A stretch of DNA of 64,000 nt from Bryobacteraceae bacterium (GCA_035295865.1 DATGIH010000526.1:14066-78065); one strand, 5' to 3'. Positions 4,030 through 62,192 are shown, counted from the stretch's first letter. Program-made: numbers and translations. The notes: generated from the sequence alone by a model not told the origin.

Positions 4030-4890
4030 ATGTTCCGGTTTCTTGCTTCCAACCTCGTTTGCGTACTAGCCTTACCAGTGATGCTACCGGCGGCGGAATC
4101 GTACCAATCGGAAATCGCGCGATGGCGCGAGCAGCAAGAGCGCGAACTCAAAAGTGATACGGGATGGCTGACTGTCGCGGGATTGTTCTGGCTGAAAGAG
4201 GGCGCGAACACCGCAGGCAGCGCCGAGTCGAACGCGATCGTTCTGCCGCGTGGTCCGGCGCACTTGGGCGAATTCAAACTGCATGCCGGACAAGTGACGT
4301 TTCAACCCGCCGCTGGAGTTCCACTACAGGCAAAAATGTTAAAAGCGGATACCGCAGGCAAGCCCGATCCCATCGAATTCGACGGACTCACCATGTTCGT
4401 GATTCATCGCGGCGAACGCTACGGCATCCGGATGCGCGATCTGCAAAGCAAGCTGCGCAAGGATTTCACCGCGCGCCATTGGTTTCCGGTGAAGCCGGAT
4501 TATCGCGTCACCGCTAGATTCGTCGCCTACAATCCGCCGAAAATGATTACCGTTCCCAACGTTCTGGGCGAAACCAGCGAAATGCCGAGTCCGGGCTATG
4601 TCGAATTCAAGCTGGGTGGACAAGAACTGCGGCTCGACCCGGTGGTGGAAGACAACGATCTCTTTTTCATCTTCCACGACGAAACCAGCGGCCATGGTAC
4701 GTATCCGCCGGGCCGTTTTCTACACGCCGATTTTGCGAAAGACGGCGTGGTGACGCTCGATTTCAACAAAGCCTACAATCCGCCGTGCTCTTTCACGCCG
4801 TACGCGACGTGCCCGCTGCCGCCGAAGCAAAATCGGCTCCCGGTGAAGATTGAGGCGGGCGAGCAGTTCGCCGGACACGCTGGGCATTAG
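4030..4890 (+). CDS. DUF1684 domain protein
   Basis: Signal-like N-terminus. The W-x2-R...GWLTVAGLFWL start and the C-terminal YPPGRFL...LDFNKAYNPPCSF...CPLPPKQNRL...IEAGE block are typical of DUF1684. Confidence 0.75.
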   Translation: MFRFLASNLVCVLALPVMLPAAESYQSEIARWREQQERELKSDTGWLTVAGLFWLKEGANTAGSAESNAIVLPRGPAHLGEFKLHAGQVTFQPAAGVPLQAKMLKADTAGKPDPIEFDGLTMFVIHRGERYGIRMRDLQSKLRKDFTARHWFPVKPDYRVTARFVAYNPPKMITVPNVLGETSEMPSPGYVEFKLGGQELRLDPVVEDNDLFFIFHDETSGHGTYPPGRFLHADFAKDGVVTLDFNKAYNPPCSFTPYATCPLPPKQNRLPVKIEAGEQFAGHAGH

Positions 4891-4927
4891 TTCGCCCGCG
4901 CCATGCATCGCCAGGAGTGGCGACGCG

Positions 4928-4996
4928 GCACGCAGAAGTGCGTGCGCTACATGTGGCGCGAACACTCGTGTTTGCCGCGTTCGCACTCGTGCGAAC
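4928..4996. repeat. REP-like cluster of three palindromic hairpin units (copy A)
   Basis: Three hairpins: GCACGCA-gaag-TGCGTGC (4928-4945), GCGAACAC-tc-GTGTTTGC (4958-4975) and GTTCGCAC-tc-GTGCGAAC (4979-4996). They lie in the convergent intergenic gap 4891-5010. The same unit types recur at 7111-7201. Confidence 0.75.
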
Positions 4997-5010
4997 GCCC
5001 TCAACCTGGT

Positions 5011-5991
5011 CTACTTGGTCAGATAATTCCGATGCACCCAAGCATCGCGCTGCGCCCGGTCGCGCGTTTCGAACATTACGTTCTGCGATGTTTCCTTCAC
5101 GATCACTTCGGTGCGGCTGGTTAGATCAGTGACTTTGCCTTTTCCGGATTCCGCATCCGCCAGCGCAGTCTTCACCGCGTTCGCGCTCACCGGTTCGAAC
5201 TTCGCGCCCGGCTTATTGGTCGCCACCGCTTCCACTGAACTGGCGCGCAGCAGCTTCATCCAAAGTTTTGCGAACAGTTCGTGCGAACCGTAGACGTCGG
5301 CGCTGTTCAATTTGCCATCGATCGCGAAAGCATAGCCGATCACATCGCTCTTCCCTTTCACGATGCCGGCCAAGTCTTCGAGATACCCATCGATAGACCG
5401 CTGTACAGCCGGCGCTTCCAGCGTCATCGCGAAGCTGCTGGGAGACGGCGTCGCGCGCACATCCGTGCGCAGGTTGCTACTGAGCTGTGCCTGCGCCTCA
5501 GCCACGCGATTCCAGACTTCGCGCTGGTCCTGCTGCATCTTCACCGCCATCTTGAGTTGTTTGGACGCGATCGCCTGGTGCGCCTCGCCGAATGTGCGAA
5601 CATCTTCCGCGCCGCGCCGGGTCCAGCGGCCATGCTCGACACAGAACGAATTCAGGCTGACTTTGCCGGATTTCGATGGCAGAATCAGATCGTCCTTGAG
5701 CGTGCGATCCTGCGCGCCGCCTTTGACGATATCGCCGGATTCGATGAACACGTCTTCGTTCGAGACGTTCTCCACCGCCAGCTCGTTGACGTTGCGGGTT
5801 TCATAGACAACCACTTTGTGCTGGTCGATGGCTTCGTCCAGCGTGAGCAAACGTCTCGCCGAGGTGTCAGCGCCATGAATCAGAAAAATCGAGAGATTGT
5901 CGTGTGTGTACGGTCCGGACAGATGAGTTTGCGCGAAACAGAGAGCTGTGCTGGCGATCGCGAGCACACTCCGGGTTAGCATTCGTTGCAT
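5011..5991 (-). CDS. Secreted DUF6569 / ARPP-1-like family protein
   Basis: Signal peptide MQRMLTRSVLAIASTALCFAQ. Motif blocks match my recollection of the DUF6569/ARPP-1 family: NLSIFLIHG, LTLDEAIDQHKVVVYE, ESGDIVKGGAQDRTL, CVEHGRW and VIGYAFAIDGKLNSADVYGSHELFAKLWMKLL. An AAGGAGG SD sits upstream. Confidence 0.55.
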   Translation of the reverse strand: MQRMLTRSVLAIASTALCFAQTHLSGPYTHDNLSIFLIHGADTSARRLLTLDEAIDQHKVVVYETRNVNELAVENVSNEDVFIESGDIVKGGAQDRTLKDDLILPSKSGKVSLNSFCVEHGRWTRRGAEDVRTFGEAHQAIASKQLKMAVKMQQDQREVWNRVAEAQAQLSSNLRTDVRATPSPSSFAMTLEAPAVQRSIDGYLEDLAGIVKGKSDVIGYAFAIDGKLNSADVYGSHELFAKLWMKLLRASSVEAVATNKPGAKFEPVSANAVKTALADAESGKGKVTDLTSRTEVIVKETSQNVMFETRDRAQRDAWVHRNYLTK

Positions 5992-41889: not shown

Positions 41890-43380
41890 ATGACTCTTGC
41901 TCTCTTTCTCTCCGTTTTCCTGATTGCCGCCTGCGGCCTCATCTATGAGCTGATCGCCGGAACGCTCGCCAGCTACCTGCTCGGCGACAGCGTCTTCCAG
42001 TTCTCCACCATCATCGGCTGCTATCTGTTCGCAATGGGAATCGGCAGCTATCTTTCGCGATTCCTGCGCCGCGGCTTAGTCGCCCGATTCGTATCCGTGG
42101 AGCTGATGGTCGGCCTGGTCGGCGGATTCTCATCTTCCCTGCTCTTTCTCGCTTTCGCTTACACCGAAGCGTTCCGTCTGATTTTGTACATCGTGGTGAT
42201 CCTGGTTGGAACGCTGGTCGGCCTCGAAATTCCGCTGCTGATGCGGATTCTGAAAGAGCGTTTCCAGTTCAGCGAGCTGGTCTCGCAGGTCCTCACGTTC
42301 GATTATTTAGGCGCGCTCGGCGCGTCGCTTCTGTTTCCCATTCTGCTTGTTCCGAAACTCGGCTTGGTTCGCTCTGCGCTGGTCTTCGGAATCTTGAACG
42401 CCGGCGTAGCGCTGTGGTCGACCTTTCTTTTTCGCGAACAGCTCGGTCCGGGCTTGGGTCTGCGCGCCGGGTGCATCGCCGTGCTCGCCATGCTCGGCGC
42501 GGGAACCATTTTCGCCGACCGCATCTCATCCGCCGCCGACAACAATCTCTACGCCGACGAAGTGATCTTCAGCCGGAACACGCGCTATCAGCGGATTGTT
42601 CTGACGCGCTGGAAGGACGACCTGCGGCTGTTCCTCAATTCACACCTGCAGTTCAGTTCGCGCGATGAATATCGTTATCACGAGGCATTAGTACATCCGG
42701 GGCTTGCGGCGCTTCCGGGAGCGCGGCGCGTCCTGGTTATGGGCGGCGGGGATGGCTTAGCGGTCCGCGAGATTCTGAAGTATCCGACGGTGGAAAGCGT
42801 GACGCTGGTGGATCTCGATCCCGAAATGACCGGCCTCTTCTCCACACACTCGGTGTTATCTTCGTTGAACGGACATTCGCTCACTGCGCCGCGCGTTCAT
42901 GTCATTAACGCGGATGCCTTTCGCTGGCTGGACACGAATCCGGATCGCTTCGATTTCATCGTGGCGGATTTTCCCGATCCGACGAGTTATTCGCTCGGAA
43001 AGCTTTACACGACGACTTTTTATCGGCTGGCCGCCAAACATCTTAGCGCCGGCGGGCTTCTTGTGGTCCAAAGCACGTCACCGCTCTTTGCGCGGCAGTC
43101 GTATTGGTGCATCGTCGAAACGGTAAAGCAGGCGGGACTCCGGACGTATCCCTATCACTTATATGTGCCCTCGTTCGGCGAATGGGGATTCGTGATCGGC
43201 AGCCAAGCTCAGTATGAATTTCCGCAGCAGCTTCCGAGCGGTCTTCGATACCTGACGAACGTTCGCGACATGTTCGATTTCCCGAATGACATGAAGCCGA
43301 TCGCGGTGGAACCGAATTATCTGAACAATCAGATTCTGGTCCGCTATTACGAGCGCGAATGGAAAGACATCGCGAGGTGA
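41890..43380 (+). CDS. speE: Polyamine aminopropyltransferase (spermidine synthase-like) with N-terminal multi-TM domain
   Basis: About 7 TM helices precede the catalytic domain, which carries VLVMGGGDGLAVREI, LVDLDPEM and ADFPDP motifs. Confidence 0.85.
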   Translation: MTLALFLSVFLIAACGLIYELIAGTLASYLLGDSVFQFSTIIGCYLFAMGIGSYLSRFLRRGLVARFVSVELMVGLVGGFSSSLLFLAFAYTEAFRLILYIVVILVGTLVGLEIPLLMRILKERFQFSELVSQVLTFDYLGALGASLLFPILLVPKLGLVRSALVFGILNAGVALWSTFLFREQLGPGLGLRAGCIAVLAMLGAGTIFADRISSAADNNLYADEVIFSRNTRYQRIVLTRWKDDLRLFLNSHLQFSSRDEYRYHEALVHPGLAALPGARRVLVMGGGDGLAVREILKYPTVESVTLVDLDPEMTGLFSTHSVLSSLNGHSLTAPRVHVINADAFRWLDTNPDRFDFIVADFPDPTSYSLGKLYTTTFYRLAAKHLSAGGLLVVQSTSPLFARQSYWCIVETVKQAGLRTYPYHLYVPSFGEWGFVIGSQAQYEFPQQLPSGLRYLTNVRDMFDFPNDMKPIAVEPNYLNNQILVRYYEREWKDIAR

Positions 43381-44855
43381 CTCGCCGCACTATTCTGGCG
43401 GCGGCTCCCGCGTTGATTGGTCTGGCGAAGAAAACAGACCGCCCCATCACCGGCAGCTTCGTCAACGACGCATTTCTGACTGGCCACCGATTGCGCGATC
43501 ATGCCACGTTCCAAAAGCCGGCGCATCAGCAGCGCGTCCCGATCGTAATTATCGGCGGCGGTATCGCCGGATTAAGCGCGGCTTGGGAACTCGACCGCCG
43601 CGGCATCCACGATTTTGTTTTGCTCGAAATGGAACAGCAAGCCGGCGGTAACTCGCGCTGGGGCGAAAACGAAATCTCGAAATTTCCCTGGGCTGCGCAC
43701 TACGTTCCTGTGCCCGCGAAAGGCGAGTCGCTCGCCCGCGAGCTTTTCGAAGAACTCGGCGTGTTCCGCGATGGCAAGTGGGACGACCGCGTGCTCTGCT
43801 TCGATCCCCAGGAGCGCCTCTTCCGCTACGGCCGCTGGCAGGAGGGCATCGAACCGGAAGCGGGAGCAAGTCCGGGCGATCGCGATCAGTATCGCCGCTT
43901 CAGTGAGAAGATCAACCAGTTCCGCGCCTCCGGCGAGTTCACCATTCCGATGCAGCGCGGCGCAAAGCTCTCGCCGCTCGACAAACTTTCGATGGCGGAT
44001 TGGCTTTCGAGTGAGCGCTTCGACTCGCCGTCGCTCCGCTGGTATATCAACTATGCATGCCGCGACGATTACGGCGCGCTCGCCCGCGATACTTCCGCGT
44101 GGGCCGGCATCCACTATTTCGCATCGCGCGATCCGGAGGAGAAGGGACCGCTTACCTGGCCCGAAGGTAACGGCTTCATCGCGCAGGCTTTGATCAAGAA
44201 GCTAAGCCGCTACATTTACACCGGCTCTGTGGTTTATCACGTCACGCGCGATCTGCACGTGCTGACCGAGCAAACCGAATACATCGCCGAAAAATTGATT
44301 TTCGCAGCGCCAACATTTCTTGCGCAGTATTTGGTAGAAGGCGCGCCGCCGGCGGCCGGCTTCCAATACTCGCCCTGGCTCACCGCCAACCTGACGCTCG
44401 ATCGAATTCCGGATCAAAAAGGCGCGGAACCTGCCTGGGACAACGTGATCTACGATTCCCCCGCGCTTGGTTACGTGAACGCAACACACATGAGTGTCGC
44501 CACTCACACCGAGCGAACGGTTTGGACGTTCTACTGGTCGCTCGCTGAGTACACGCCGCCTGCAGCTCGGACGCTCCTATTGGCCAAGGATTGGAACTAC
44601 TGGAAGGAAGCGATTCTAACGGATTTGTCACGCGCCCACCCGGATATCCGGCAGTGTGTGAGCCACATCGACATCATGCGGATGGGCCACGCGATGATTC
44701 GTCCGGCATCCGGGTTTATGTTTTCGGGCGAACGCGAGCGATGGTTAAAAGCGCAAGGCCGAATCCACTACGCAAATTCCGATTTGAGCGGATTTTCGAT
44801 TTTTGAAGAAGCGCAGTACCGGGGCGTAAGCGCTGCTCGGGACGCTATCCGCTAG
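43377..44855 (+). CDS. Tat-exported FAD-dependent oxidoreductase (amine-oxidase-like)
   Basis: The GTG at 43377 forms a GTGA overlap with the speE stop and gives the twin-arginine signal (M)TRRTILAAAPALIGLA. Dinucleotide fold VPIVIIGGGIAGLSAAWEL. Confidence 0.75.
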   Translation: MTRRTILAAAPALIGLAKKTDRPITGSFVNDAFLTGHRLRDHATFQKPAHQQRVPIVIIGGGIAGLSAAWELDRRGIHDFVLLEMEQQAGGNSRWGENEISKFPWAAHYVPVPAKGESLARELFEELGVFRDGKWDDRVLCFDPQERLFRYGRWQEGIEPEAGASPGDRDQYRRFSEKINQFRASGEFTIPMQRGAKLSPLDKLSMADWLSSERFDSPSLRWYINYACRDDYGALARDTSAWAGIHYFASRDPEEKGPLTWPEGNGFIAQALIKKLSRYIYTGSVVYHVTRDLHVLTEQTEYIAEKLIFAAPTFLAQYLVEGAPPAAGFQYSPWLTANLTLDRIPDQKGAEPAWDNVIYDSPALGYVNATHMSVATHTERTVWTFYWSLAEYTPPAARTLLLAKDWNYWKEAILTDLSRAHPDIRQCVSHIDIMRMGHAMIRPASGFMFSGERERWLKAQGRIHYANSDLSGFSIFEEAQYRGVSAARDAIR

Positions 44856-48811: not shown

Positions 48812-48949
48812 GCTTTAACTCCTTGAAAACACAGGGCTGGACAGCCCAAGAATGGTGCCTGCTTTAAACCAATATTTTACCAGAACCGGCCTCCCCGCCA
48901 CCGGCTTTTTTCGCGGCCATTTTCCGCGATAAACTTGGTGTTCGTTCCC

Positions 48950-49474
48950 ATGCTGAAACACGGATTCGACATGCACCGCGTCTTCCTCTCGGCTCCGGGC
49001 GACCTCGAACGAGAGCGCGAGGCTTGCCGCGCCGCAATATCGGACGTCAATTCCGCAAGCGCCATGCCTGCGAAGATTTTGCTCGTTACGGTCGGCCTGA
49101 CCAGCGACGACGCGATTGTTGGCTATCGGTCGGCTGTGGCCGAGAACATTCGTGCCTCCGCCTACTATGTGCAAGTCTTCGACGACGATTGGGGGCCCAA
49201 GGATCTTTTCCGGAAGATGTTCTTTCTCGCGGTCGAGTGCCGCGACGATCCAAATTTTCCGATGCAGGAGTTGGTGGTGTTTTTGAAAGACGCCCCGCGC
49301 GAACAGGATCCGGAAATTCTCGCATTTCGCAAAGAGCTGCGGGAGCAGTCCTGCGTGCGTGCCTATGTATTCGACAATCCCGAGGCCTTGAAGAAACAGT
49401 TGGAGCAGGTGTCGAGCGAGTGGGTCCGTCAGCTCATCGCGGCGGGTCCCGGTGAATCCAGCCATTCACAGTGA
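48950..49474 (+). CDS. Hypothetical protein, DUF4062-like N-terminus
   Basis: HRVFLSAPGDLEREREACRAAI resembles the (V/I)F(I/L)S-x3-DL-x2-ER start of DUF4062 domains. The start is ambiguous (48935 TTG, 48950 ATG or 48971 ATG). The 3' end overlaps the convergent oxygenase gene by 41 nt. Confidence 0.4.
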   Translation: MLKHGFDMHRVFLSAPGDLEREREACRAAISDVNSASAMPAKILLVTVGLTSDDAIVGYRSAVAENIRASAYYVQVFDDDWGPKDLFRKMFFLAVECRDDPNFPMQELVVFLKDAPREQDPEILAFRKELREQSCVRAYVFDNPEALKKQLEQVSSEWVRQLIAAGPGESSHSQ

Positions 49475-49964
49475 ATCGGCTGTCGGCGAATGCTCGGGAT
49501 GGCGCGTGTACTGGCAGCACTTCGTGAACGGCGTTGCTCGGAAAAAGCACAAGGGTGTCGCCGCACGGCTCGACGGGGTTTGACGCAACGATCAACTCGC
49601 CGCCCGAAAAGCGCCGCGGCTCGCTGTGCAGAAAATAGACGAACGTTACGGCGCGCGTATCGTCCGGACCTCCGTCGATATGCGCTCGAAAGTAATCGCC
49701 GTCGTTCGAAGCCGCGATCTGATGCTCAATCCGGCCCTGCGGCGATATCCGCCTGAGCCGTTCCAAGAATGTCCCGACGCGTGGCTCCAGCGTCTCCAAC
49801 ACTCTCGCCCGCCGCACTCCTTCCACCACCGCGCGGCCTCCGCCGATCGACACGGTGGCTAAGGTGAAATGCGATTCGCGAGCCAGAACGGAATCGAGCA
49901 GCGCCAGCCGCGCTTCGCCCAGGAAGCCCGGGATGATCGTCAGACCAGGGGCGCCGGGTGCCAT
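49434..49964 (-). CDS. 2OG-Fe(II) oxygenase (prolyl-hydroxylase-like)
   Basis: The H-x-D...H facial triad is candidate HIDGG and HEV, followed by RFTVNGW. The FVYFLH...FSGGEL core is typical of the 2OG-FeII_Oxy_3 type. Confidence 0.75.
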   Translation of the reverse strand: MAPGAPGLTIIPGFLGEARLALLDSVLARESHFTLATVSIGGGRAVVEGVRRARVLETLEPRVGTFLERLRRISPQGRIEHQIAASNDGDYFRAHIDGGPDDTRAVTFVYFLHSEPRRFSGGELIVASNPVEPCGDTLVLFPSNAVHEVLPVHAPSRAFADSRFTVNGWIHRDPPR

Positions 49965-50422
49965 TCCATGAAATAGTTCATCGGATCTTCGCGCACGATC
50001 TGAAATCCGAGCCGACGGTGGAACTTCAGCGACCCGGGATTGAACCGGTCCACCATGGATTTGATCGGCAGCTTTGCGTTTTGCGCTTCCTGTTGCAACC
50101 GCTGCACCAGCACGGTTCCCAAACCCTTGCTCTGCACGTTCGGATGTAGGGCGATGTCCACCAGCAGAAAAGCGCGGTCCCCTGGCGCCACCCAGAGCCG
50201 ACCCACGGGCTTTGAATCGAGCAGCACCAGGTGATAGCAGGAGTTGGGAAATTGTTGCGTGTAGGAAGAGAGCTGCGCATGGAACTGCATCCGTAGCAGA
50301 TGCTCTTGTTGCGCGGGCGTCAGTTGGGTTAACGCAAAGAGCGGTCCCCGGATGGCCCGGTACAATTCGTACAGGAAGATTTCATCTTGCGCGAGAGCCG
50401 GACGAACCGCGAGAGTCGACAT
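49940..50422 (-). CDS. GNAT family N-acetyltransferase
   Basis: Acetyl-CoA binding motif-A-like QSKGLGTVLVQRL and the C-terminal FHRRLGF block. Confidence 0.8.
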   Translation of the reverse strand: MSTLAVRPALAQDEIFLYELYRAIRGPLFALTQLTPAQQEHLLRMQFHAQLSSYTQQFPNSCYHLVLLDSKPVGRLWVAPGDRAFLLVDIALHPNVQSKGLGTVLVQRLQQEAQNAKLPIKSMVDRFNPGSLKFHRRLGFQIVREDPMNYFMEWHPAPLV

Positions 50423-50452
50423 GTCGGACGAGCGCCGGGAGGGCCGCTGATG

Positions 50453-50980
50453 TTACGGCCGCGCTGGATAAATGCCTTGCAGCGCGATGCAGAAGTTGAG
50501 CACCAGGTACGGCATCATATTGTTGTGCGGCTGGTTATTGCCGATCACCCCGAGCATATTCTGATTCATGTTCACCAGCGGCGAGGTTGCCGTGGAGTAA
50601 ATCTGCGTTGCGGGGCCGGTGCACAGCGCATTACCGCCAGGAGATCCGCTGTTGGGAGGCGCGTCGTCGGGATCCGTCATGAAGTTGTGGTTGTGCCTCG
50701 GCATTTCGTTCAGCTGCAGCGTGACGAATTGACTTCCTCCGTTTTCCCCAATGCTGTACTGGCTAAGCCCTGAGCCGCTTCCCTGGCTGATCGACAGGTT
50801 GCCTTGCATATTCGGCAACGCGAAGTTGGACTTACCGTCGCCGCCGTAGTAGGTCCCGATCAAGGAGAAGAGCGCTGTGTTGGAGGAAATGGGGATGATT
50901 TGGCCATCGCAAAGCGCCCAGCCTTTGGGAGCGAAATTGCAACCGAAAACCCGAACTTCCGCGACAAATTGATCAGACAT
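50453..50980 (-). CDS. Phage tail collar domain protein (MdpB-like), paralog 3
   Basis: I place the start at the ATG at 50978-50980, preceded by an AAAGGAGA SD. Motifs: NFAPKGWALCDGQ...ISSNTALFSLIGTYYGGDGKSNFALPNMQG, EMPRHNH, and C-terminal PYLVLNFCIALQGIYP. Confidence 0.85.
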   Translation of the reverse strand: MSDQFVAEVRVFGCNFAPKGWALCDGQIIPISSNTALFSLIGTYYGGDGKSNFALPNMQGNLSISQGSGSGLSQYSIGENGGSQFVTLQLNEMPRHNHNFMTDPDDAPPNSGSPGGNALCTGPATQIYSTATSPLVNMNQNMLGVIGNNQPHNNMMPYLVLNFCIALQGIYPARP

Positions 50981-50993
50981 TCTGGTCTCCTTT

Positions 50994-51500
50994 CTAATTC
51001 CGGCTGGGGAAAACGCCAAACAGGCAGATGACCCAGTTCATAACAAGATAAGGCGACTGATTCGGATGCGCCTGGCTGCCGCCAGTCATGCTGATGTCCG
51101 AGGGGAACATTAGCGCCGGGCTATTGAGCGGGCCATATATGGTTAAGCTTCCGGCGGTGTTCGCCAGCAAATTGTTGGTCGGACTGACATTGTTTTGTAC
51201 AGCATTAATTGCTTGCACAAAATGCGGATGCGCCGGCATCTCGCCGGTGGTGAGCGTGTGGTTGATTTCTCCGCCCTTCTGGCCCTGCACGAAGCCACCG
51301 CCAAAATGCATCGCCGCCGACCCTTGCAAATTCGGAAGCGCAAAAGTCCGCTGGCCGTCGCCGCCGTAGGTGGTTCCAAGCAGCGCGAAAAGAGCCTGGT
51401 TACTGCTGATCTGCAAGAGTTGGCCGTTGCACTGTGCCCAGTTTTTGGGCGCGAAATTAAAGGAAACCAATTTCAATTCGCTGGTATATGGAGTAGGCAT
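50994..51500 (-). CDS. Phage tail collar domain protein (MdpB-like), paralog 2
   Basis: Motifs: NFAPKNWAQCNGQ...ISSNQALFALLGTTYGGDGQRTFALPNLQG, EMPAHPH, PYLVMNWVICLFGVFP. An AGAGGA SD sits upstream. Confidence 0.85.
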   Translation of the reverse strand: MPTPYTSELKLVSFNFAPKNWAQCNGQLLQISSNQALFALLGTTYGGDGQRTFALPNLQGSAAMHFGGGFVQGQKGGEINHTLTTGEMPAHPHFVQAINAVQNNVSPTNNLLANTAGSLTIYGPLNSPALMFPSDISMTGGSQAHPNQSPYLVMNWVICLFGVFPSRN

Positions 51501-51521
51501 GAATTCCTCTTCTTTTCCGCG

Positions 51522-52040
51522 TCAGTTCTGAGTGGGAAAAACACCGTATAGCGAAATCACCCAAGTCATAGTTAAAAACGGCTGCAGGTTGTTGTGGGGA
51601 ATGCTCCCTCCCGCCGGTGTTATGGCGGCGGCTGGGTTCATGGCACGTAGCGGCGTCGGGCTGGTGACATAAACCTGAGTCGCGGCCGCCGCGAGCGCGT
51701 TGTTCTGTGGAAAGTTGCTGTTTCCATTCACGTTCGACGCGTTCAACGGGTGGTTATGCGTAGGCAATTCCTGCGTGGTCAGCGTGACATTTTCCGTGCC
51801 GCCGCGCTGGCCGATAATGAACGGAGTTCCCCCGAAATTTCCCTGATGCAACGGTGAGCGGCCCTGCAAATCCGGCATTTGAAAGTTCTGTTGGCCGTCA
51901 CCGCCGTACGTTGTGCCAATGAGTTGGAACAGAGCCTCGTTGGAAGAGATAGCGATAGTTTGGCCGGAACACATTAACCAGCCGTTAGGCGCGAAGTTGA
52001 ACGCCACAAGGCGGCATTCACCAATATAAGGGTCGGACAT
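51522..52040 (-). CDS. Phage tail collar domain protein (MdpB-like), paralog 1
   Basis: Motifs: NFAPNGWLMCSGQ...ISSNEALFQLIGTTYGGDGQQNFQMPDLQG, ELPTHNH, PFLTMTWVISLYGVFP. An AAGGAG SD sits upstream. Confidence 0.85.
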   Translation of the reverse strand: MSDPYIGECRLVAFNFAPNGWLMCSGQTIAISSNEALFQLIGTTYGGDGQQNFQMPDLQGRSPLHQGNFGGTPFIIGQRGGTENVTLTTQELPTHNHPLNASNVNGNSNFPQNNALAAAATQVYVTSPTPLRAMNPAAAITPAGGSIPHNNLQPFLTMTWVISLYGVFPTQN

Positions 52041-52435
52041 CCTGGAAAAGCTCCTTCTTTGGATTTCGACACAAGTTGGAGTAGCTTGATTACGTTATCA
52101 CTATTCCGAAAGCCTGGCAACGATATTTTTCAAGGTCCGGGCCACTGTGATGCGACCGACGATCGGAGCTTGTGAAGGATCGTAAATATGTTTCATCCTG
52201 CTCTGGAGATTTAAGCCCCAAGCAACTGAAAATCATTGCACGACGCCAGATGTACCTCTGGCTCAGTGATTCGCCGGCACGTAATGCCTTATGAATTATC
52301 GGCGAAATACACTAGTACTTATTCGACATTCAAACTCGGTGAATCTTCACAATGTACGCAGATTTCCGTGATAGACTTTACAAGCGACGCTTGGAGCAGG
52401 TGACTTCCGGCTTCGGTGCACGAGGAGGGTTCGTA

Positions 52436-55400
52436 GTGTTTAATCGAAAAGCGTTCTCATCTTTATTCTTGATTCTCGTCATAGCGCTGGTTGTTTCGAC
52501 AGGCGCGGCGAGTGCGGCAGTGGTCTGCACGCCCGGCTCGGGTACGGTTACCTGCACAGGCGGCCCCGGAGCTTCCGTCAGCTACAATAACCACACCGCT
52601 GGCACCACCGCGGACGGCTCTCCCTTCCCATCCACCATCCCAGTGACAGGAGGCTCCGGCACGGTTTCCAGCGTCACGGTGACATTGAATGGCTATAACG
52701 CATCTCCCGCCATCACGGGCTCCGGTTCGGCCGATGTCGGTATTTTGCTCACCGACCCCAACGGCAGAAATTTCCAATTCATTCGCGACGTCGGTAGGGG
52801 CACCAACGGCCAGACTAACTTAACGGTCAAGATACAGGACGGGGCCACGCAAATTCCCAGCGGCACGAACACTTGGACCACCAGCGGCACATTCGGCCCG
52901 ACCGCAAACGCAGGCGCCTTCGAAAATAGTCCAGCTTACGGCCTCGGTACGATCAACTCGGCGGCGCCGCTGGGAACTTCCACGTTCGCCAGCGTTTTCA
53001 CCGGCGAGCCCGTCAATGGAAATTGGAACCTCTATCTGGCCGATGATGGGACGGACGCCGCGGTCAGCTGGTCAAGCTGGGACATCACCATCAATTTCAC
53101 GGCCGCATCCAGTCCCAGCACTACGACGCTGAGCCCGAGCAATTCCACGCCTTTCACCTCCGGGACGAACAGCACTGTGACATTGACGGCCACGGTCACG
53201 TCGGGAGCGACGGGAACCGTCACGTTCAAGGACGGGAGCACCAACCTAACCTGCATCGGTGGAAATCCGGCGGCGCTCAGCGGCGGCAGCGCGACTTGCA
53301 GCACATCCTTTTCCACCGAAGGAATCCACGGGCTCTCTGCGAACTATTCGGGCGATGGAACCTTCGTGGCCAGTTCGGGCACCGCGAACATTTTCGCCAT
53401 GAATCACGCATCGAACCCGGTCAGCGGGACGTATTGCAACGCCGGAACCATTTCAAGCGATGGCGACTCGGAAGCCGGGTTCTCTCACACCGCGCCTTAT
53501 CCAACGGTAATTTTCGTGGGCGATGGCGTGAACACGGATATTACGAACTCGGTTTCCACCGTGTCGGTGAAGCTGTCGAACCTCACTCCCGGAGCTTCCA
53601 CCGACTTGCACATGTTGCTGGTGTCACCCGACCACTCGCACGCCCTCGATTTCTGGTCGAATGCCGGAGGATCTTCGGGGAACGGCGTCGGAGCTTACAA
53701 CATTCAAGATGGCGGTTCACAGCTACCCTGTGCATCCACGCTTACGCCCGGCACTTACGGGCCGACATCCTGCAGCGCGGACAGTAATCCGACTTCCGAC
53801 GGGTTCACACCCGGGCCGCCTAATCCGGCCCCGCAAGTGCCTGCCAGCTTCTCGCTCGCCCCGCCCGCAGGTTCAAGTAGCTTTGAAACCGCCTTCAACG
53901 GCGCCACCGCGCACGGTGCATGGTCGCTTTATATTTCGAACGAGTCGGGTTCGACCACTACTACGGCTTCCGGCGGTTGGTGCCTCAATATCACGGCCGC
54001 CACGGGACACCCGACAACCACCGCGGTCACCCCGAATCCGACCTTTGCCGCCTTGGGCCAGACGGTAACCTTTACCGCGACGGTATCAAGTTCACCTGCG
54101 GTAAATCAGGGAACTGTGACGTTCACAGAAAACGGCGCGCCCCTGGTGGGCGCCTTAAACAATGGGGTCGCCGGCGTTTCGGCAGGTGTGGCATCGGTCA
54201 CAACGAACCAGCTTCCGGAAGGCGATCATACCGTCACAGCCACGTATCACGACTCCTCGAACACATACAATGACAGCCTCGGCACCACTTCCATGCGCGT
54301 GGATAAGACCACCAGCACTCCTACACTTTCCGGCGCCACCTGGAGCTACTGCAATACTGGTGCGGTCACCATTCCGGCCGGCACTCTTACGGTCAACGAT
54401 ACCGGACCCGCGCAGCCGAACCCGTCGAATATTTTCGTCACTAATCTGCCAGGCACCATTTCAAACGTGAACGTCACGTTGAAAGGCCTGCACCTGGCCC
54501 ACGGCGCGAGCGATCTGGAGTCCCTGCTGGTGGGGCCGAACGGTGCAAATCAGCCTACCGCCGCTCAAACTCTGGACTTCTTCTCACTCGTGGACAACGG
54601 CACGGCGTTTGGCCCGCAAGACACCACCTTCGAGGATGGCTCGTCGCTGTCGTGCAATTCGGTCACCGCCATTTTTGCCACGAACGGTCCAACAAGTTGC
54701 GGTGCGACCTCGTACACGGCTAGTCTCTTTTACATGCTGCCCAGCCCCATCCACCAGGGCACCCCCACGGGCTCGTCTACGTTTGCTTCGGCCTACCAGA
54801 ACACGATTCCCAACGGCACCTGGAGCCTCTACTTCGACCAGCCCCAACACGATACAGGCAGCGGTTTGAACGGCGGCTGGTGTGCCAATTTCATCGAGAA
54901 TCCCGTCACCGGCATCGGGACCACGTCGCACACCGGTCCTGCGCCCAACAACCATATGCGGCAGGGCGGAACCGGCACGGTTACTTTGAGCTTGCTGAAC
55001 AACGGCGACTCCAACAGCCTGGGTTCGACGGGCGATCCGGACCAAGCCGTGGCCCACGCAATGACCGTCACGGGCACCCTCCCTGCGGGGCTGTCATTTG
55101 GAACTTTGCCCACCACGCCATGGAACTGCATAGGTGTTACCAACTCAGTGACCTGCACGAATTTGAGTGCGATCGCCGCCGGGTCCAGTTATCCGGCGCT
55201 CAATCTGCCGGTGGTTGTAGCTTCGAACGCCCCTGTCACGGCTACGGTGAGTGGATTCACGTTCGGCGGCGCCGGCATGTCAGCGGGAACTTTTTCGAGC
55301 GATACCATCACCATCGATCCGGCGCCCATCCTGGCCATTTCCAAGAACCACCTCGGAACGTTCACGCAGGGCTCAACCGCAACCTGGACCCTCCAGGTTT

Positions 55401-56908
55401 CGAATACCTCCGCCACCACAGCGGGCGCAACCGACGGTTCCACCGTAACGGTCACCGATACTCTGCCAACCGGTTATACGCTCTCCTCGGGAATAGGAAC
55501 AAACTGGAATTGCTCCGGAACTTCCACAGTTACTTGTACAACCACGGCTGTTGTCGCCGGCAATGGAGGAAGCTTCCCATTGATCACTCTCACAGTGAAC
55601 GTACCGGCCGGCTCTCCGACTTCGGTCAGCAATAGCGGCAGCGTATACGGCGGCGGCGATCTCGTTCACACCGTGAGCAATCAGGCGATCTCAAACACCG
55701 ACACAGTGAGCGTGGTGCAGGTTCCAGCGAAGATCGTCATCAACGGCAGCCAAACGCAATCGACCGGAGTCAACACCGCGTTCGGAAGTTTGGCCGTCAC
55801 GATTGAAGACGCGAGCAATGTCGTCATCCCGAATTACTCTTCGGTAGTGTTCACGGCCACAACGGGAAGTAATGGCCAGAGCGGAACCTTCGGCAATACA
55901 ACTGGAACCACGACCATTAGCGCGAACGCGAGCGGGATTGCAGATCCCGGCACGTTCACCGCGAACGGAAAAGTGGGTACATATTCCGTTGGCGTCACCG
56001 CCGGAAGCGCGACGACCAGCTTCACTCTGACGAACACGGGAACCGCGGCGGTGATTACGAACGTCACGTCCACCACTGCAAACGGATCGTATACCGTCGG
56101 CGCGATGATCAACGTCACGGTCACGTTTAACAAAACGGTGAACGTGACGGGTACGCCGCTGCTGGCTCTCAATTCGGGCGGAACTGCCAGCTTCAGCTCC
56201 GGATCGGGATCGGCGAATTTGTCGTTCATTTATACGGTCGCAGCCGGTCAAAATAGTTCGCGCCTGGATGCTACCTCGACTAGCGCGCTGTCGCTCAACG
56301 GCGGAACCATCCAAGACACCAGCGGCACGGCCGCGGTCCTGACACTGCCTACGCCTGGTGCGGCGGGGTCGTTGGGAGCGAATAAAAACATCGTGATCGA
56401 CACGACATCGCCGACGGTGGTCAGTTACTCGGTGGATTTCGGCAGCCAGGCGTACAACCTGACTGGCGCATCGCGCACCACGCATCTTCCTTGGAGCGTG
56501 ACGGGAGTCACCGTAGTATTTTCGAAGCCAATCGCCACCGCAAACGCGGCGAGCCTTGGCGGGATTTCCGCCACGGGGTTGTCTGGCCTCGGAACATCCA
56601 CCCTAACCTGGACCTTCCCGGCGATCACCAATGCTACACTCAGCACCACGCTCGCCGGCAGCGGACCCAATGCAATCAAGGACGCTGCGGGCAACGCGTT
56701 GTCGGGAGGGGCTGGGTTTAGTCAGTCCTTCAGCGTTTTGTATGGCGATTTCAATGGAGATGGTGTAGTGAATGCGAGCGACCTAACATTGGTCAACAAC
56801 GCTACGCACGCTCCTTATAACATCTTCGCGGATTTGAATGGCGATGGTGTGGTGAATGCGACCGATGTCAACATCGCCCGTACCAGAATTGGTAATTCCC
56901 AGCAGTGA
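52436..56908 (+). CDS. Giant secreted surface protein: three P-domain-like modules, Ig-like and DUF11-like repeats, C-terminal dockerin
   Basis: The GTG at 52436 follows a GGAGGG SD and opens the signal peptide (M)FNRKAFSSLFLILVIALVVSTGAASA; the track ORF starts at 52352. P-domain-like ends: NGNWNLYLADD, HGAWSLYISNESG, NGTWSLYFDQ. Ig-like TVTFKDGSTNLTC. DUF11-like TWTLQVSNTS...VTDTLPTGYTL. Dockerin duplicate GDFNGDGVVNASDL / ADLNGDGVVNATDV. Confidence 0.85.
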   Translation: MFNRKAFSSLFLILVIALVVSTGAASAAVVCTPGSGTVTCTGGPGASVSYNNHTAGTTADGSPFPSTIPVTGGSGTVSSVTVTLNGYNASPAITGSGSADVGILLTDPNGRNFQFIRDVGRGTNGQTNLTVKIQDGATQIPSGTNTWTTSGTFGPTANAGAFENSPAYGLGTINSAAPLGTSTFASVFTGEPVNGNWNLYLADDGTDAAVSWSSWDITINFTAASSPSTTTLSPSNSTPFTSGTNSTVTLTATVTSGATGTVTFKDGSTNLTCIGGNPAALSGGSATCSTSFSTEGIHGLSANYSGDGTFVASSGTANIFAMNHASNPVSGTYCNAGTISSDGDSEAGFSHTAPYPTVIFVGDGVNTDITNSVSTVSVKLSNLTPGASTDLHMLLVSPDHSHALDFWSNAGGSSGNGVGAYNIQDGGSQLPCASTLTPGTYGPTSCSADSNPTSDGFTPGPPNPAPQVPASFSLAPPAGSSSFETAFNGATAHGAWSLYISNESGSTTTTASGGWCLNITAATGHPTTTAVTPNPTFAALGQTVTFTATVSSSPAVNQGTVTFTENGAPLVGALNNGVAGVSAGVASVTTNQLPEGDHTVTATYHDSSNTYNDSLGTTSMRVDKTTSTPTLSGATWSYCNTGAVTIPAGTLTVNDTGPAQPNPSNIFVTNLPGTISNVNVTLKGLHLAHGASDLESLLVGPNGANQPTAAQTLDFFSLVDNGTAFGPQDTTFEDGSSLSCNSVTAIFATNGPTSCGATSYTASLFYMLPSPIHQGTPTGSSTFASAYQNTIPNGTWSLYFDQPQHDTGSGLNGGWCANFIENPVTGIGTTSHTGPAPNNHMRQGGTGTVTLSLLNNGDSNSLGSTGDPDQAVAHAMTVTGTLPAGLSFGTLPTTPWNCIGVTNSVTCTNLSAIAAGSSYPALNLPVVVASNAPVTATVSGFTFGGAGMSAGTFSSDTITIDPAPILAISKNHLGTFTQGSTATWTLQVSNTSATTAGATDGSTVTVTDTLPTGYTLSSGIGTNWNCSGTSTVTCTTTAVVAGNGGSFPLITLTVNVPAGSPTSVSNSGSVYGGGDLVHTVSNQAISNTDTVSVVQVPAKIVINGSQTQSTGVNTAFGSLAVTIEDASNVVIPNYSSVVFTATTGSNGQSGTFGNTTGTTTISANASGIADPGTFTANGKVGTYSVGVTAGSATTSFTLTNTGTAAVITNVTSTTANGSYTVGAMINVTVTFNKTVNVTGTPLLALNSGGTASFSSGSGSANLSFIYTVAAGQNSSRLDATSTSALSLNGGTIQDTSGTAAVLTLPTPGAAGSLGANKNIVIDTTSPTVVSYSVDFGSQAYNLTGASRTTHLPWSVTGVTVVFSKPIATANAASLGGISATGLSGLGTSTLTWTFPAITNATLSTTLAGSGPNAIKDAAGNALSGGAGFSQSFSVLYGDFNGDGVVNASDLTLVNNATHAPYNIFADLNGDGVVNATDVNIARTRIGNSQQ

Positions 56909-56927: not shown

Positions 56928-57581
56928 ATGAAAAATAAAATGCAATACTTCCGGCTTGGATTATTGGTGCCTGCGTTCGCTGCTCTGCTGATTTCTTCGA
57001 CGCCGCTACGCGCGGACTTCATCTTTAGCCTCGATCCGGTCATCACCGCCCAAGCAGGTTCGACTGGAAACGTTTTCGACGTCCTGTTGAAAAATCTCGG
57101 AGCATCGACGGTCACCGTAGGAAGCTTCTCATTCGGCATCACGACGGCGAATACCGATATCACGTTCACTAACGCGGATACCTCCACGACAGCTCCCTAC
57201 ATTTTTGCTGGAGATTCGTTCGACGACATGAACGGATTCACGCTTTACACGAACTCTCTACCCGGTCAAACGGTGGAGGCTGCTGACGCATCAGCCAGCT
57301 TGGTAGGGGCCAGCGTCGGAGCCGGTGTGACCGTTGGAGTAGGCCGCATTATGTTTGACATTGCGAACGGCGCCACTCCTGGCCCGTTCGCTGTGACCTT
57401 CGAGGCATCGCCCACGACTGGCCTTTCCGATACCAACGGCAACGGTCTTGACTTCACCACAACGGACGGCACGATTACCATCACGCCCGCCACAAATCCT
57501 GTTCCCGAACCAGCGCAGGCCACCCTGCTGTTCTGCGCTTTCGCGGGAATCGTGCTTTTAAGCAAGCGCCGCCGCCCGTAA
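56928..57581 (+). CDS. PEP-CTERM anchored protein with cohesin-like domain
   Basis: Signal peptide. A ~150-aa beta-rich domain follows (AQAGSTGNVFDVLLKNLG..., VGRIMFDIANGATPGPFAVTFE, DFTTTDGTITI) that resembles cohesin modules. C-terminal VPEPAQATLLFCAFAGIVLLSKRRRP is a PEP-CTERM sorting signal. Confidence 0.75.
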   Translation: MKNKMQYFRLGLLVPAFAALLISSTPLRADFIFSLDPVITAQAGSTGNVFDVLLKNLGASTVTVGSFSFGITTANTDITFTNADTSTTAPYIFAGDSFDDMNGFTLYTNSLPGQTVEAADASASLVGASVGAGVTVGVGRIMFDIANGATPGPFAVTFEASPTTGLSDTNGNGLDFTTTDGTITITPATNPVPEPAQATLLFCAFAGIVLLSKRRRP

Positions 57582-61349: not shown

Positions 61350-62192
61350 TTATACGCCGCACCAACTTGAAAGATCGCGCTTCAGCAAGGCGCCAAGCTT
61401 TTCGACATCGGCGCGATAGAAATTACTTAAGAACGCTCGATCGGCGGACTCCATCGCCACAGCCGGCGCGCCAGCTTCCAGATACCGCCGCGACATGTCC
61501 GGGCGGAAGCGCGTGTCCACTTCCAGGAAGCGAAAAATGTCCGCCAGCATTCGCAGCGGTTTCGACTTGTACTCCTCGTACCAATAGATGCGGACTTGCT
61601 CTTTTGGAAAAACGTCGAGCACGCGTTTGACCTGATCGTGATAAAGACCGAGATCGAGGAACGGGTGGAAAATATCGAATCCGCCGCCGCGCTGCTCCAG
61701 CCCTTTTTGGATCGCCTCGCCAAACGAGAGACTCGATCCCTCGCTTCTTCGGTTGTGCAGGTACATCGAGAAGACCATGTCCACCGGATTGCGCAAGATC
61801 AAAATGATCCGTGCCTTCGGGAGATCGCGCCGGATATTTGCCGCGGCCGATTCCGACCAGAGATAGCAAACGCTCGCTTCTCCAATGGCCTTCTGGTCCT
61901 CGGCTTTGCGGAACAATCGCAAATAATCGGACCATTCGGTGACCATTCCGCCGAACCGCTTCTCGCGCATCGGCCCGTTCAAGTACGCACGCAGCGTGGG
62001 CCCATCTTTTTCCGCGCGCGGCCGCAGCCATTCACTGAAGTTTTCCAGGCGAATCTCGGAAGCGAAATAGTTCGGCTCCTTGATGCGGCTCATGTGGATA
62101 TCCGGATGCTGATCTAAATAGTGATAGAGGGAAGTTGTGCCAGACTTCGGCGCGCCGGCTATGAAAAAGTTCGGAAGCTTAGGAGGTTTCAC
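61350..62192 (-). CDS. Sulfotransferase family protein
   Basis: 5'-PSB motif FFIAGAPKSGTTSL and 3'-PB-like RNPVDMVFS. Confidence 0.8.
   Translation of the reverse strand: MKPPKLPNFFIAGAPKSGTTSLYHYLDQHPDIHMSRIKEPNYFASEIRLENFSEWLRPRAEKDGPTLRAYLNGPMREKRFGGMVTEWSDYLRLFRKAEDQKAIGEASVCYLWSESAAANIRRDLPKARIILILRNPVDMVFSMYLHNRRSEGSSLSFGEAIQKGLEQRGGGFDIFHPFLDLGLYHDQVKRVLDVFPKEQVRIYWYEEYKSKPLRMLADIFRFLEVDTRFRPDMSRRYLEAGAPAVAMESADRAFLSNFYRADVEKLGALLKRDLSSWCGV

Follow-up and report, generated by a model that had tools for sequence, protein, structure and literature searches.

The Collar domain (Pfam PF07484) is found at the tail-fibre tips of phage T4 (gp12 and gp37; PDB entries 1ocy and 2xgf) and of cyanophage A-1(L) (8kec), where homotrimeric tips end long shafts in the virion. 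In the virophage DSLV2, three consecutive PF07484 proteins (QIG59353-55) are reported to assemble into a stable, lipopolysaccharide-binding heterotrimer (PMC12724248). RhiB, from the rhiABC(D) operon of Rhizobium, has been assigned to both COG4675 and PF07484 (PMC6969944, PMC13133039), and COG4675-type collar proteins occur in soil metaproteomes (PMC5579227). Iyer, Abhiman, de Souza and Aravind predicted in 2010 that dioxygenases, sulfotransferases and acetyltransferases encoded beside tail-collar proteins use these as substrates (PMC2938197). Throughout the literature we searched, the function of the COG4675 'microcystin-dependent protein' is still labelled unknown.

Here we describe a bacterial locus in which three collar genes most likely encode three different subunits of one binding protein resembling a phage tail-fibre tip. 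Its proteins share the Pfam Collar domain of the T4 and A-1(L) fibres, and in both groups an HxH pair follows the collar and a C-terminal strand motif returns after a variable segment. Unlike the phage tips, they are stand-alone tips of 170 aa, and the cellular operon that encodes them as three diverged paralogs also contains a GNAT.

The collar locus and its relatives

The window, as we call the whole 64,000-nucleotide stretch that was analysed, carries five genes at 49434-52040, all on the minus strand. These are the collar genes col1 (51522-52040; 172 aa), col2 (50994-51500; 168 aa) and col3 (50453-50980; 175 aa counted from the ATG), a GNAT N-acetyltransferase (49940-50422; 160 aa) and a prolyl-hydroxylase-like 2OG-Fe(II) oxygenase (49434-49964; 176 aa). 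Gaps of 21, 13 and 30 nt separate col1 from col2, col2 from col3 and col3 from the GNAT gene, and the oxygenase gene overlaps the 3' end of the GNAT gene by 25 nt, which makes translational coupling of the two likely. Each collar gene has a ribosome-binding site of its own, AAGGAG upstream of col1 and col3 and GAGGA upstream of col2. On paralogy, lengths, coordinates, spacing, overlap and individual Shine-Dalgarno sequences, the original prediction was correct throughout. A promoter-like element, TTGCCA-N17-TAACGT (52092..52120, minus strand), can be read some 45 nt ahead of the start codon of col1. It falls in a block, TTGCCAG...AGTGATAACGT, that is the best-kept stretch of the upstream intergenic region in the relatives L081, L084, L089 and L083; a promoter consensus scan did not include the element among its reports. 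The genes are chromosomal, lie beside gyrA and probably constitute a single operon of a soil acidobacterium that is itself probably Bryobacteraceae-like.

All three collar proteins match PF07484 at 84-87.5 bits against a gathering score of 24 (E = 5.6e-25, 5.7e-24 and 7.3e-25 for col1, col2 and col3), passing the profile check that had been proposed for them. The identity of col2 and col3 to col1 is 49% and 45%, respectively, and 53 columns are invariant among the three, including H95, H97, H149, N151 and the motifs quoted in the original prediction. The three histidines are invariant in 245 of 245 homologous proteins and N151 in 244 of them. An HxH pair follows the collar in each window protein and, by analogy with T4 gp12 and gp37, these pairs would be expected to form a metal site on the three-fold axis. 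In an AF2 monomer of col1 the collar domain has a pLDDT of 83-91 and the remainder is poor; its best Foldseek matches are the A-1(L) tail fibre and T4 gp12, and the Foldseek and PDB sequence matches of the collar proteins are phage tail-fibre tips only (8kec, 1ocy, 2xgf). They are at most 35% identical to proteins of phages. As the 170-aa proteins comprise collar and tip and lack a shaft, the proposed cellular, non-phage 'fibre-like' complex holds good as to its cellular setting, free of phage genes, while 'fibre-like' is too strong a label.

Of the operon's genes the GNAT evolves most slowly, with 77-93% identity to its relatives as against 52-85% for whole collar proteins and 42-82% for their central segment of about 50 residues. 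This fast-evolving segment may form the ligand-binding surface. An N-terminus of the form M-[A/S/G]-x-P-[F/Y] is kept in all three clades of collar protein described below. A homologue search at E <= 1e-10 gave 17,644 cluster representatives, and homologues of col1 are mostly named 'microcystin-dependent protein' by JGI. Collar triplets were found in 80 genomes spanning at least 11 phyla, among them Acidobacteriota, Pseudomonadota, Bacteroidota, Verrucomicrobiota, Planctomycetota, Chloroflexota, Bacillota, Actinomycetota, Gemmatimonadota and Eremiobacterota.

Enzymes beside the triplet

The GNAT matches Acetyltransf_1 (PF00583) at 43.6 bits against a cut-off of 20.7 (4e-11). In 48 of 53 well-flanked loci a homologue (E <= 1e-8) is encoded no more than 4 kb from the triplet; the other five lack it, as does the stretch seen beside P0297, one of the fused collar proteins described below. 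This subfamily accompanies the triplet through differing gene orders and in at least 10 phyla, which bears out the predicted link between the two. Three collar genes of Acaryochloris shift expression jointly with an acetyltransferase (PMC11633204). RimI (TIGR01575) was considered as the identity of the enzyme and rejected, at 23.7 bits far under the cut-off of 86.4. Judged by its sequence the GNAT is not RimI, yet it may act like an N-alpha-acetyltransferase.

The oxygenase matches 2OG-FeII_Oxy_3 (PF13640) at 59.5 bits against a cut-off of 27 (6.4e-16). The HxD...H iron triad (HxD as HID, the distal His in VHEV) and the 2OG-binding Arg (RFT) are readable in its translation; its PDB sequence matches are weak (PKHD-type hydroxylases, chain 4iw3 and EGLN1). 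Its proposed link to collar triplets holds only within a narrow lineage, and it is not a general partner: none of the 80 genome loci has the gene, it comes after the GNAT solely in the lineage surrounding the window (L083, L084-86, L087-88), and the relatives L001 and L089 lack it. We regard it as a lineage-restricted accessory gene.

It is possible, if less probable than modification of the collar proteins themselves, that the collar trimer is real and the enzymes act on something else, such as a small molecule, a sugar ligand or a giant adhesin, or that the oxygenase is a mere neighbour. The GNAT could be assigned to no specific family: we found no NCBIfam equivalog for it, and its matches, to YncA and to puromycin and phosphinothricin acetyltransferases, are weak and diverse. 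The absence of the oxygenase from the 80 loci points the same way, as does the lack of any collar module fused to a GNAT or an oxygenase among the best 150 representatives. Against this, the GNAT subfamily travels with the triplet between phyla and gene orders, the GNAT-oxygenase pair still adjoins the collar genes in L087 although the downstream context there differs, and the two enzymes are likely to be translationally coupled. The small conserved residue at the collar N-terminus would suit an N-alpha-acetyltransferase substrate, a circumstantial point.

Three clades and their single-chain fusions

The clade analysis covered 245 collar proteins from 81 loci, namely the 80 genome loci and the window. 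They fall into three clades, with a mean identity of 59-62% within and 47-50% between clades, and the window contributes one protein to each (col1 to clade 1, col2 to clade 0 and col3 to clade 2). One member per clade is present in 72 loci and two full sets in a further two, and in these 74 of 81 loci the predicted obligate set of three paralogs is recovered. Collar genes are duplicated as entire triplets, and the clade-2 gene stands last in the triplet in 72 of the 74 loci.

Perhaps the most telling relatives are single chains of about 500-560 aa that contain three full collar modules joined by linkers of 1-10 residues. The order of modules is clade 1-0-2 in 7 of 14 such fusions, matching the window operon, and one three-module fusion is present on two independent assemblies. 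Of 11 multi-module proteins examined, giant ones included, 10 have a multiple of three collar modules in every group. The three-module chains and the multiples of three support one trimer built from three different modules, and the chains are the strongest available argument for the 1:1:1 stoichiometry that the original prediction had proposed and that the one-per-clade sets also back.

An unlikely alternative to this heterotrimer is that the paralogs form three separate homotrimers, each with its own ligand specificity, as a small repertoire of binding proteins. The complete set of HxH, His and Asn residues in every paralog means that each could form a metal site of its own. T4 gp12 and gp37, known collar-domain fibres, are homotrimers, and phage fibre tips are what the PDB matches of the collar proteins consist of. 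One relative, L087/L088, keeps intact only the clade-2 gene, with a remnant of a second collar gene and the GNAT and oxygenase genes; a single subunit may therefore suffice, or the locus may be decaying. Across the three subunits, central-segment length shows no covariation (r = 0.02-0.12) and little variance. Set against these points, a repertoire should differ in copy number, yet nearly all loci hold one gene per clade or two sets. Single chains of three different, closely linked modules, and the multiples of three in giant proteins, would be hard to explain by homotrimers, and a heterotrimer of this kind has a published precedent (PMC12724248).

Probable surface partners, proposed model and known systems

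At other loci we observed two conserved partners that the original prediction had overlooked, giant adhesins and the small protein DUF6916 (PF21880). In 31 of 48 well-flanked loci the triplet has a gene of at least 900 aa within 3 kb, frequently on its own strand at a distance of 10-60 nt, and the giant neighbours tested are adhesin-like, with Big_9, cadherin, RTX or T9SS domains. In the window the giant neighbour is a divergently transcribed protein of 1518 aa (52352..56908, plus strand) with Big_3_5, P_proprotein and dockerin matches in Pfam and no homology to the main giant family of other triplet loci. The same divergent giant gene is retained in L081, one further relative locus, L083, L084-86, L087 and L089-90, and it is a probable functional partner of the collar operon. 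Of 53 well-flanked loci, 43 encode DUF6916 no more than 5 kb from the triplet, and a Tat-signal DUF6916 lies within the cassette of at least 23 loci. No window ORF matches DUF6916 at E < 10, and it is absent too from the close relatives L001, L009, L016 and L048.

Direct reading of the N-termini of the collar proteins (MSDPYIGE, MPTPYTSE and MSDQFVAE) reveals no hydrophobic segment, in keeping with the predicted lack of signal peptides. As the lineage also lacks DUF6916, no export route is visible in the window. These absences would agree with an intracellular role in place of surface binding, whether as a sensor or decoy of tail-fibre components from phages or as another cytoplasmic one, and so would the GNAT, which is cytoplasmic as judged by its sequence; such a role is less probable still than separate homotrimers. 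Against it, PADLOC defence models match neither the collar proteins nor the GNAT. Sec signals, a PEP-CTERM or a dockerin-like end occur in some of the fused relatives, collar triples are built into giant extracellular adhesins in other bacteria, and the Tat-signal DUF6916 belongs to the cassette elsewhere; a collar-domain protein has also been detected in the exoproteome of Ruegeria pomeroyi (PMC4949626).

That the genes are a prophage or tailocin remnant is scarcely credible, even with a family named for phage tail fibres and full-length relatives on four IMG/VR 'viral' contigs: a Pfam scan of 36 ORFs besides the three collar genes, spread across the 64 kb, found no capsid, terminase, baseplate or integrase family, as had been predicted, and the Pfam-matched ORFs are cellular (gyrA, GAPDH, ABC transporters, histidine kinases and others); no phage gene recurs among the neighbours in the 80 loci; the best phage relatives are about 35% identical as against about 50% for cellular copies between phyla; and in the examined part of the long IMG/VR contigs L091 and L093 the cassette reads as host flank because an integrase gene separates it from the upstream part and cellular genes (APS kinase) follow.

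We tentatively propose the following model, towards which, taken as a whole, we lean by a small measure. The products of col1, col2 and col3 would be subunits A, B and C of a single trimer of the phage tail-fibre-tip type, each with an N-terminal collar domain, an HxH pair with a second His and an Asn, and a variable central segment. The HxH pairs of the three subunits would create a shared metal site on the three-fold axis, and the central residues would provide the surface that binds the ligand. The complex could act as a lectin- or adhesin-like knob, a cellular binding module that works with giant extracellular adhesin-like proteins, for which the 1518-aa Big_3_5/dockerin protein is the candidate partner in the window. 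The GNAT would be a dedicated partner whose most likely task is cytoplasmic acetylation of the subunits, with the strictly conserved Met-(Ala/Ser/Gly) N-terminus, once Met has been removed, as the favoured site. The accessory oxygenase, added in a narrow lineage, possibly hydroxylates a conserved proline.

A wider version, doubtful when all of its parts are taken jointly, would make this a widespread bacterial machine, in which a metal-containing heterotrimeric tip is put together and N-acetylated in the cytoplasm, exported folded by way of the Tat-signal DUF6916 or, in lineages such as that of the window, by another route, and then caps or cooperates with giant adhesins as a knob, having elsewhere been fused into them as three tandem modules. 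The conserved GNAT and the Tat-signal DUF6916 of other loci point to a dedicated, so far undescribed route of maturation and export. Collar-domain proteins of the COG4675 kind are very common, and if the triplet is a heterotrimeric module tied to giant adhesins, a testable role would follow for thousands of unannotated genes from soil, plant-associated and aquatic bacteria. It would also be an example of a phage receptor-binding fold adopted by cells, and the three-chain and single-chain forms would offer a natural pair in which to study the evolution of asymmetric from symmetric trimers.

Among cellular systems, RhiB and other COG4675 MdpB members resemble the window proteins in being non-phage collar-domain proteins. 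The rhi operon, however, has a single collar gene, the unrelated RhiA and RhiC and quorum-sensing control, whereas the window has three clade-specific collar genes and a GNAT; RhiA, RhiC and LuxI/LuxR do not occur beside them, the neighbours being the GNAT, the oxygenase, gyrA and the giant Big_3_5 protein. The neighbourhoods described in 2010 likewise join tail-collar proteins, 2OG dioxygenases and acetyltransferases in bacterial operons. The window differs from them in that its core enzyme is the GNAT and its oxygenase, a PF13640-type enzyme, is lineage-restricted. Neither a Beta-hydroxylase/PhyH dioxygenase nor a sulfotransferase/PAPS synthetase of the 2010 type adjoins the collar genes in the window, where the nearest sulfotransferase (61350-62192) lies 9 kb away; in L093, a single distant locus, an APS kinase is found close to the cassette.

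In gene arrangement the window resembles DSLV2, which also has three consecutive, co-directional short PF07484 genes (196-247 aa). These are viral and lie beside capsid genes, without the GNAT, DUF6916 or giant adhesin. The suggestion that the locus represents entirely new biology is anticipated in part by the DSLV2 heterotrimer (PMC12724248) and by the 2010 prediction of collar-protein modification (PMC2938197).

Organisation of the collar operon

The genes col1 (51522-52040), col2 (50994-51500) and col3 (50453-50980), encoding proteins of 172, 168 and 175 aa, are tandem paralogs on the minus strand that all match the Pfam Collar profile PF07484 at E ~1e-24. They are followed on the same strand by a GNAT (49940-50422; 160 aa; Acetyltransf_1, 4e-11) and a 2OG-Fe(II) oxygenase (49434-49964; 176 aa; 2OG-FeII_Oxy_3, 6e-16). 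With intergenic distances of 21, 13 and 30 nt and a 25-nt overlap between the oxygenase and GNAT genes, the five-gene operon agrees in full with the original prediction in its coordinates, gaps, overlap and motifs. Col2 and col3 share 49% and 45% identity with col1, and the alignment of the three has 53 invariant columns, the HxH pair among them; NCBIfam holds no family for the collar proteins.

The operon is bordered downstream by gyrA and, divergently upstream, by the gene for a 1518-aa protein in which Pfam recognises Big_3_5, P_proprotein and dockerin domains. Directly 3' of this giant gene lies that of a PEP-CTERM-like protein (56928-57581, plus strand; 217 aa) with a signal peptide and the end VPEPAQATLL...KRRRP, and relatives keep the pair beside the collar operon. 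Beyond the oxygenase, a convergent 179-aa ORF (48935-49474, plus strand) with no Pfam match keeps its position in the related loci L001, L083, L084 and L089 and not in L087; a 216-aa ORF overlapping it (48815-49465, minus strand) is probably spurious. A TTGCCA-N17-TAACGT element upstream of col1 (52092-52120, minus strand), the best-conserved block of the divergent intergenic region across four relatives, is a candidate operon promoter. Between 48700 and 52500, neither intrinsic terminators nor sigma-70 promoters scored above chance, and Rfam yielded only a chance-level match (aceE-II, E = 0.39).

Conservation of the triplet and its partners

The collar finding is more general than was originally recognised. 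With one genome scanned per species, at least 595 collar loci were found, and nearly every one of the best 80, which we analysed, has three tandem collar genes. These 80 loci come from Acidobacteriota, Alpha-, Beta-, Gamma- and Deltaproteobacteria, Bacteroidota, Verrucomicrobiota, Planctomycetota, Chloroflexota, Bacillota (Paenibacillus), Actinomycetota, Gemmatimonadota and Eremiobacterota. Together with the window they supply 245 collar proteins, which spectral clustering divides into three clades (UPGMA did not separate them) with mean identities of 59-62% within and 47-50% between clades. Exactly one member of each clade is present at 72 loci, in the order 0-1-2 in 56, 1-0-2 in 14 (the window included) and 1-2-0 in 2, while two loci carry two complete clade sets. 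Seven loci are exceptional: five reflect a contig end or a merged ORF call (L002, L028, L072, L073, L079), L023 has an extra fourth collar gene and L045 has the order 1-0-1. Every one of the 245 proteins has H95, H97 and H149, and 244 have N151; collar paralogs of Solibacter have been reported to show a signal of positive selection (PMC3174227).

A conserved partner of the triplet is the GNAT. Of the 53 loci with at least 4 kb of flank on both sides, 48 have a homologue of the window GNAT no more than 4 kb from the triplet, either directly downstream or upstream in a divergent unit, so that the predicted linkage extends well beyond this lineage; the other five lack it, as does the flanking stretch available for the fused collar protein P0297. 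The GNAT also evolves most slowly of the operon's genes: its identity to relatives is 77-93%, that of the collars 52-85% and that of the collar central segment 42-82%. A second conserved partner, the ~100-aa DUF6916 (PF21880), occurs at 43 of the 53 well-flanked loci; neither the window nor its nearest relatives have it. Its model is a small β-barrel (pLDDT 86) with no significant fold match in the PDB, the best being Psb28 (E = 0.035) and Mu gp44 (0.15). Finally, 31 of 48 well-flanked loci have a gene of at least 900 aa no more than 3 kb from the triplet, and in many cases it shares the triplet's strand and is only 10-60 nt away. The domains of the giant neighbours tested (Big_9, cadherin, RTX repeats, a T9SS sorting domain, FG-GAP or HYR) are adhesin-like, and in the window's own lineage the divergent neighbour is always a giant protein of the Big_3_5, Flg_new_2 or dockerin type.

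The oxygenase, in contrast to the GNAT, did not bear out the predicted linkage. Even with the threshold relaxed to E < 1, none of the 80 genome loci yielded a homologue, but the gene is kept directly after the GNAT in the closer metagenome relatives L083, L084-86 and L087-88, and it is therefore a lineage-restricted addition outside the core cassette. Its downstream context differs in L087, while in L089 and L001 the oxygenase is absent and the GNAT is followed directly by the convergent gene that follows the oxygenase in the window. The protein carries an HxD...H triad and weakly resembles PKHD-type and prolyl hydroxylases. The core unit is the triplet with the GNAT, usually accompanied by DUF6916 and a giant adhesin, and the oxygenase is a local extra.

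Fused collar proteins and the proposed assembly

Perhaps the most revealing comparison is with collar proteins that carry several modules in one chain. A search of 1.84 billion cluster representatives at E ≤ 1e-10 returned 17,644 proteins, of which the best-ranked are multi-module collar proteins. About 25 single chains of 500-600 aa contain three complete collar modules, and two-module chains of ~340 aa are far more numerous. The modules are joined by linkers of 1-10 residues with no internal start, and these are therefore true fusions; that of P0297 is encoded on two independent assemblies. The clean fusions all derive from this search; the longer apparent fusions of the first homologue search (P0021, P0067, P0094) were left unused, as their scrambled stretches look like frameshifted gene calls. 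Examples of natural three-module chains are proteins P0292, P0294-P0299, P0311 and P0321 and locus L105 (2918-4453), and a 1657-aa Big_3_5/I-set/RTX protein is encoded after P0297. The module order in 7 of 14 three-module chains is clade 1, 0, 2, which is the gene order of the window. Of 11 multi-module proteins examined, giants of 1,094-5,991 aa among them, 10 have their collar domains only in groups whose size is a multiple of three, and the one group of five, in a giant protein, is probably a missed sixth. The giants with embedded collar domains (P0291, 4832 aa; P0333, P0337, P0349; P0409, 5991 aa; P0300, P0313, P0319) are FN3-, cadherin- or VCBS-type proteins in which these domains are grouped in three or six.

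A putative extracytoplasmic role of the collar complex is supported by the fused relatives, some of which carry Sec signal peptides, PEP-CTERM or dockerin-like ends, by the triples embedded in giant adhesins and by DUF6916 proteins with a Tat signal. At no fewer than 23 triplet loci one DUF6916 copy bears a twin-arginine signal (e.g., SRRKFLRAG followed by a hydrophobic stretch), usually next to the GNAT and to another DUF6916 copy that has no signal, which suggests export of a folded partner. Examples lie at L005 7857-8336(-), L008 8571-9053(-), L033 8485-8967(-) and L060 12956-13399(+). No export route for the collar proteins is visible in the window. Its organism probably has a working Tat pathway, since an amine-oxidase-like flavoprotein (43359-44855, plus strand) has the twin-arginine-type N-terminus RRTILAAAPALIG.

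We propose the following as the most likely arrangement. By a Rosetta-stone argument, the fusions, the multiples of three and the strict one-per-clade gene content suggest that three non-identical collar modules build one trimeric unit. In the AF2 monomer of col1 the collar domain is confident (pLDDT 83-91) and the remainder poor; by fold the model matches the tips of phage fibres (8kec, T4 gp12 1ocy and gp37 2xgf). The three proteins would assemble 1:1:1 into a trimer resembling such a tip, held together by a predicted metal ion at the HxH site, with the fast-evolving central segments as a putative ligand-binding surface, and the module may cooperate with the giant extracellular adhesin. At the extreme N terminus each of the three clades retains M-[A/S/G]-x-P-[F/Y], and N-alpha-acetyltransferases (RimI/J/L, NatA) use such N-termini after methionine removal. 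Because the motif suits these enzymes, we infer that the GNAT is probably a maturation enzyme, which would acetylate the collar N-termini once methionine is removed; that the collar subunits themselves are its substrate is a tentative assignment, which we would sooner doubt than assume.

Only three columns are conserved inside every clade and different between clades, so no clear asymmetric interface signature emerges. Central-segment lengths, compared between clades as a possible sign of co-assembly, correlate at r = 0.02-0.12, with a standard deviation of only 1.4-2 residues. One close relative, L087 (6023-8004)/L088, retains an intact clade-2 collar gene alone and a clade-0 remnant beside an intact GNAT and oxygenase, representing either a decaying locus or a lone subunit able to function. 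This counts against the proposed arrangement, as do the absence of the GNAT from five well-flanked loci and from the P0297 flank and the lack of homology between the window's giant neighbour and the commonest giant family. On balance, we slightly favour the reading of the triplet as a heterotrimeric, adhesin-linked binding module.

Relation to phage and known systems

A phage as present context is excluded: as predicted, none of 36 non-collar ORFs scanned across the window with Pfam is a phage structural or integration gene (those with matches are ordinary cellular genes), the best phage relatives, minor tail proteins, reach only ~35% identity, and 14 of 2.9 million viral contigs match, four over the full length. 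In the parts examined of the two long full-length matches, L091 and L093, an integrase gene stands between the upstream end of the contig and the triplet with its GNAT, with cellular genes after it, and the cassette is read as host flank. L093, from IMG/VR, also carries an APS kinase gene (4369-5094, plus strand) ~1.8 kb upstream of its GNAT-triplet-giant cassette, on the same side of the integrase gene; the giant there is a DUF4347/fn3/IPTL-CTERM protein. None of the defence-system models of PADLOC covers the collars, the GNAT or DUF6916.

No description of the triplet-GNAT-DUF6916 cassette was found in the literature searched, although its components surface individually. The rhi operon, expressed in the rhizosphere, encodes RhiB, a collar protein of COG4675 (PMC13133039, PMC6969944), COG4675 proteins occur in soil metaproteomes (PMC5579227), and the Ruegeria pomeroyi exoproteome includes a collar-domain protein (PMC4949626). 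The expression of three collar genes in Acaryochloris shifts together with that of an acetyltransferase and of adjoining hypothetical genes (PMC11633204).

The cassette is widespread, uncharacterised and directly testable. The triplet is a real finding but no new category, because enzymatic modification was predicted in 2010 and the heterotrimer has a viral precedent. Iyer et al. proposed that dioxygenases, sulfotransferases and possibly acyltransferases act on the tail-collar proteins encoded with them, with hydroxylation followed by sulfation (PMC2938197), which makes a sulfotransferase (PF00685; 61350-62192, minus strand) 9 kb from the collar operon of note. The precedent for the heterotrimer is the virophage DSLV2, in which three consecutive PF07484 proteins form a heterotrimer that binds lipopolysaccharide (PMC12724248).
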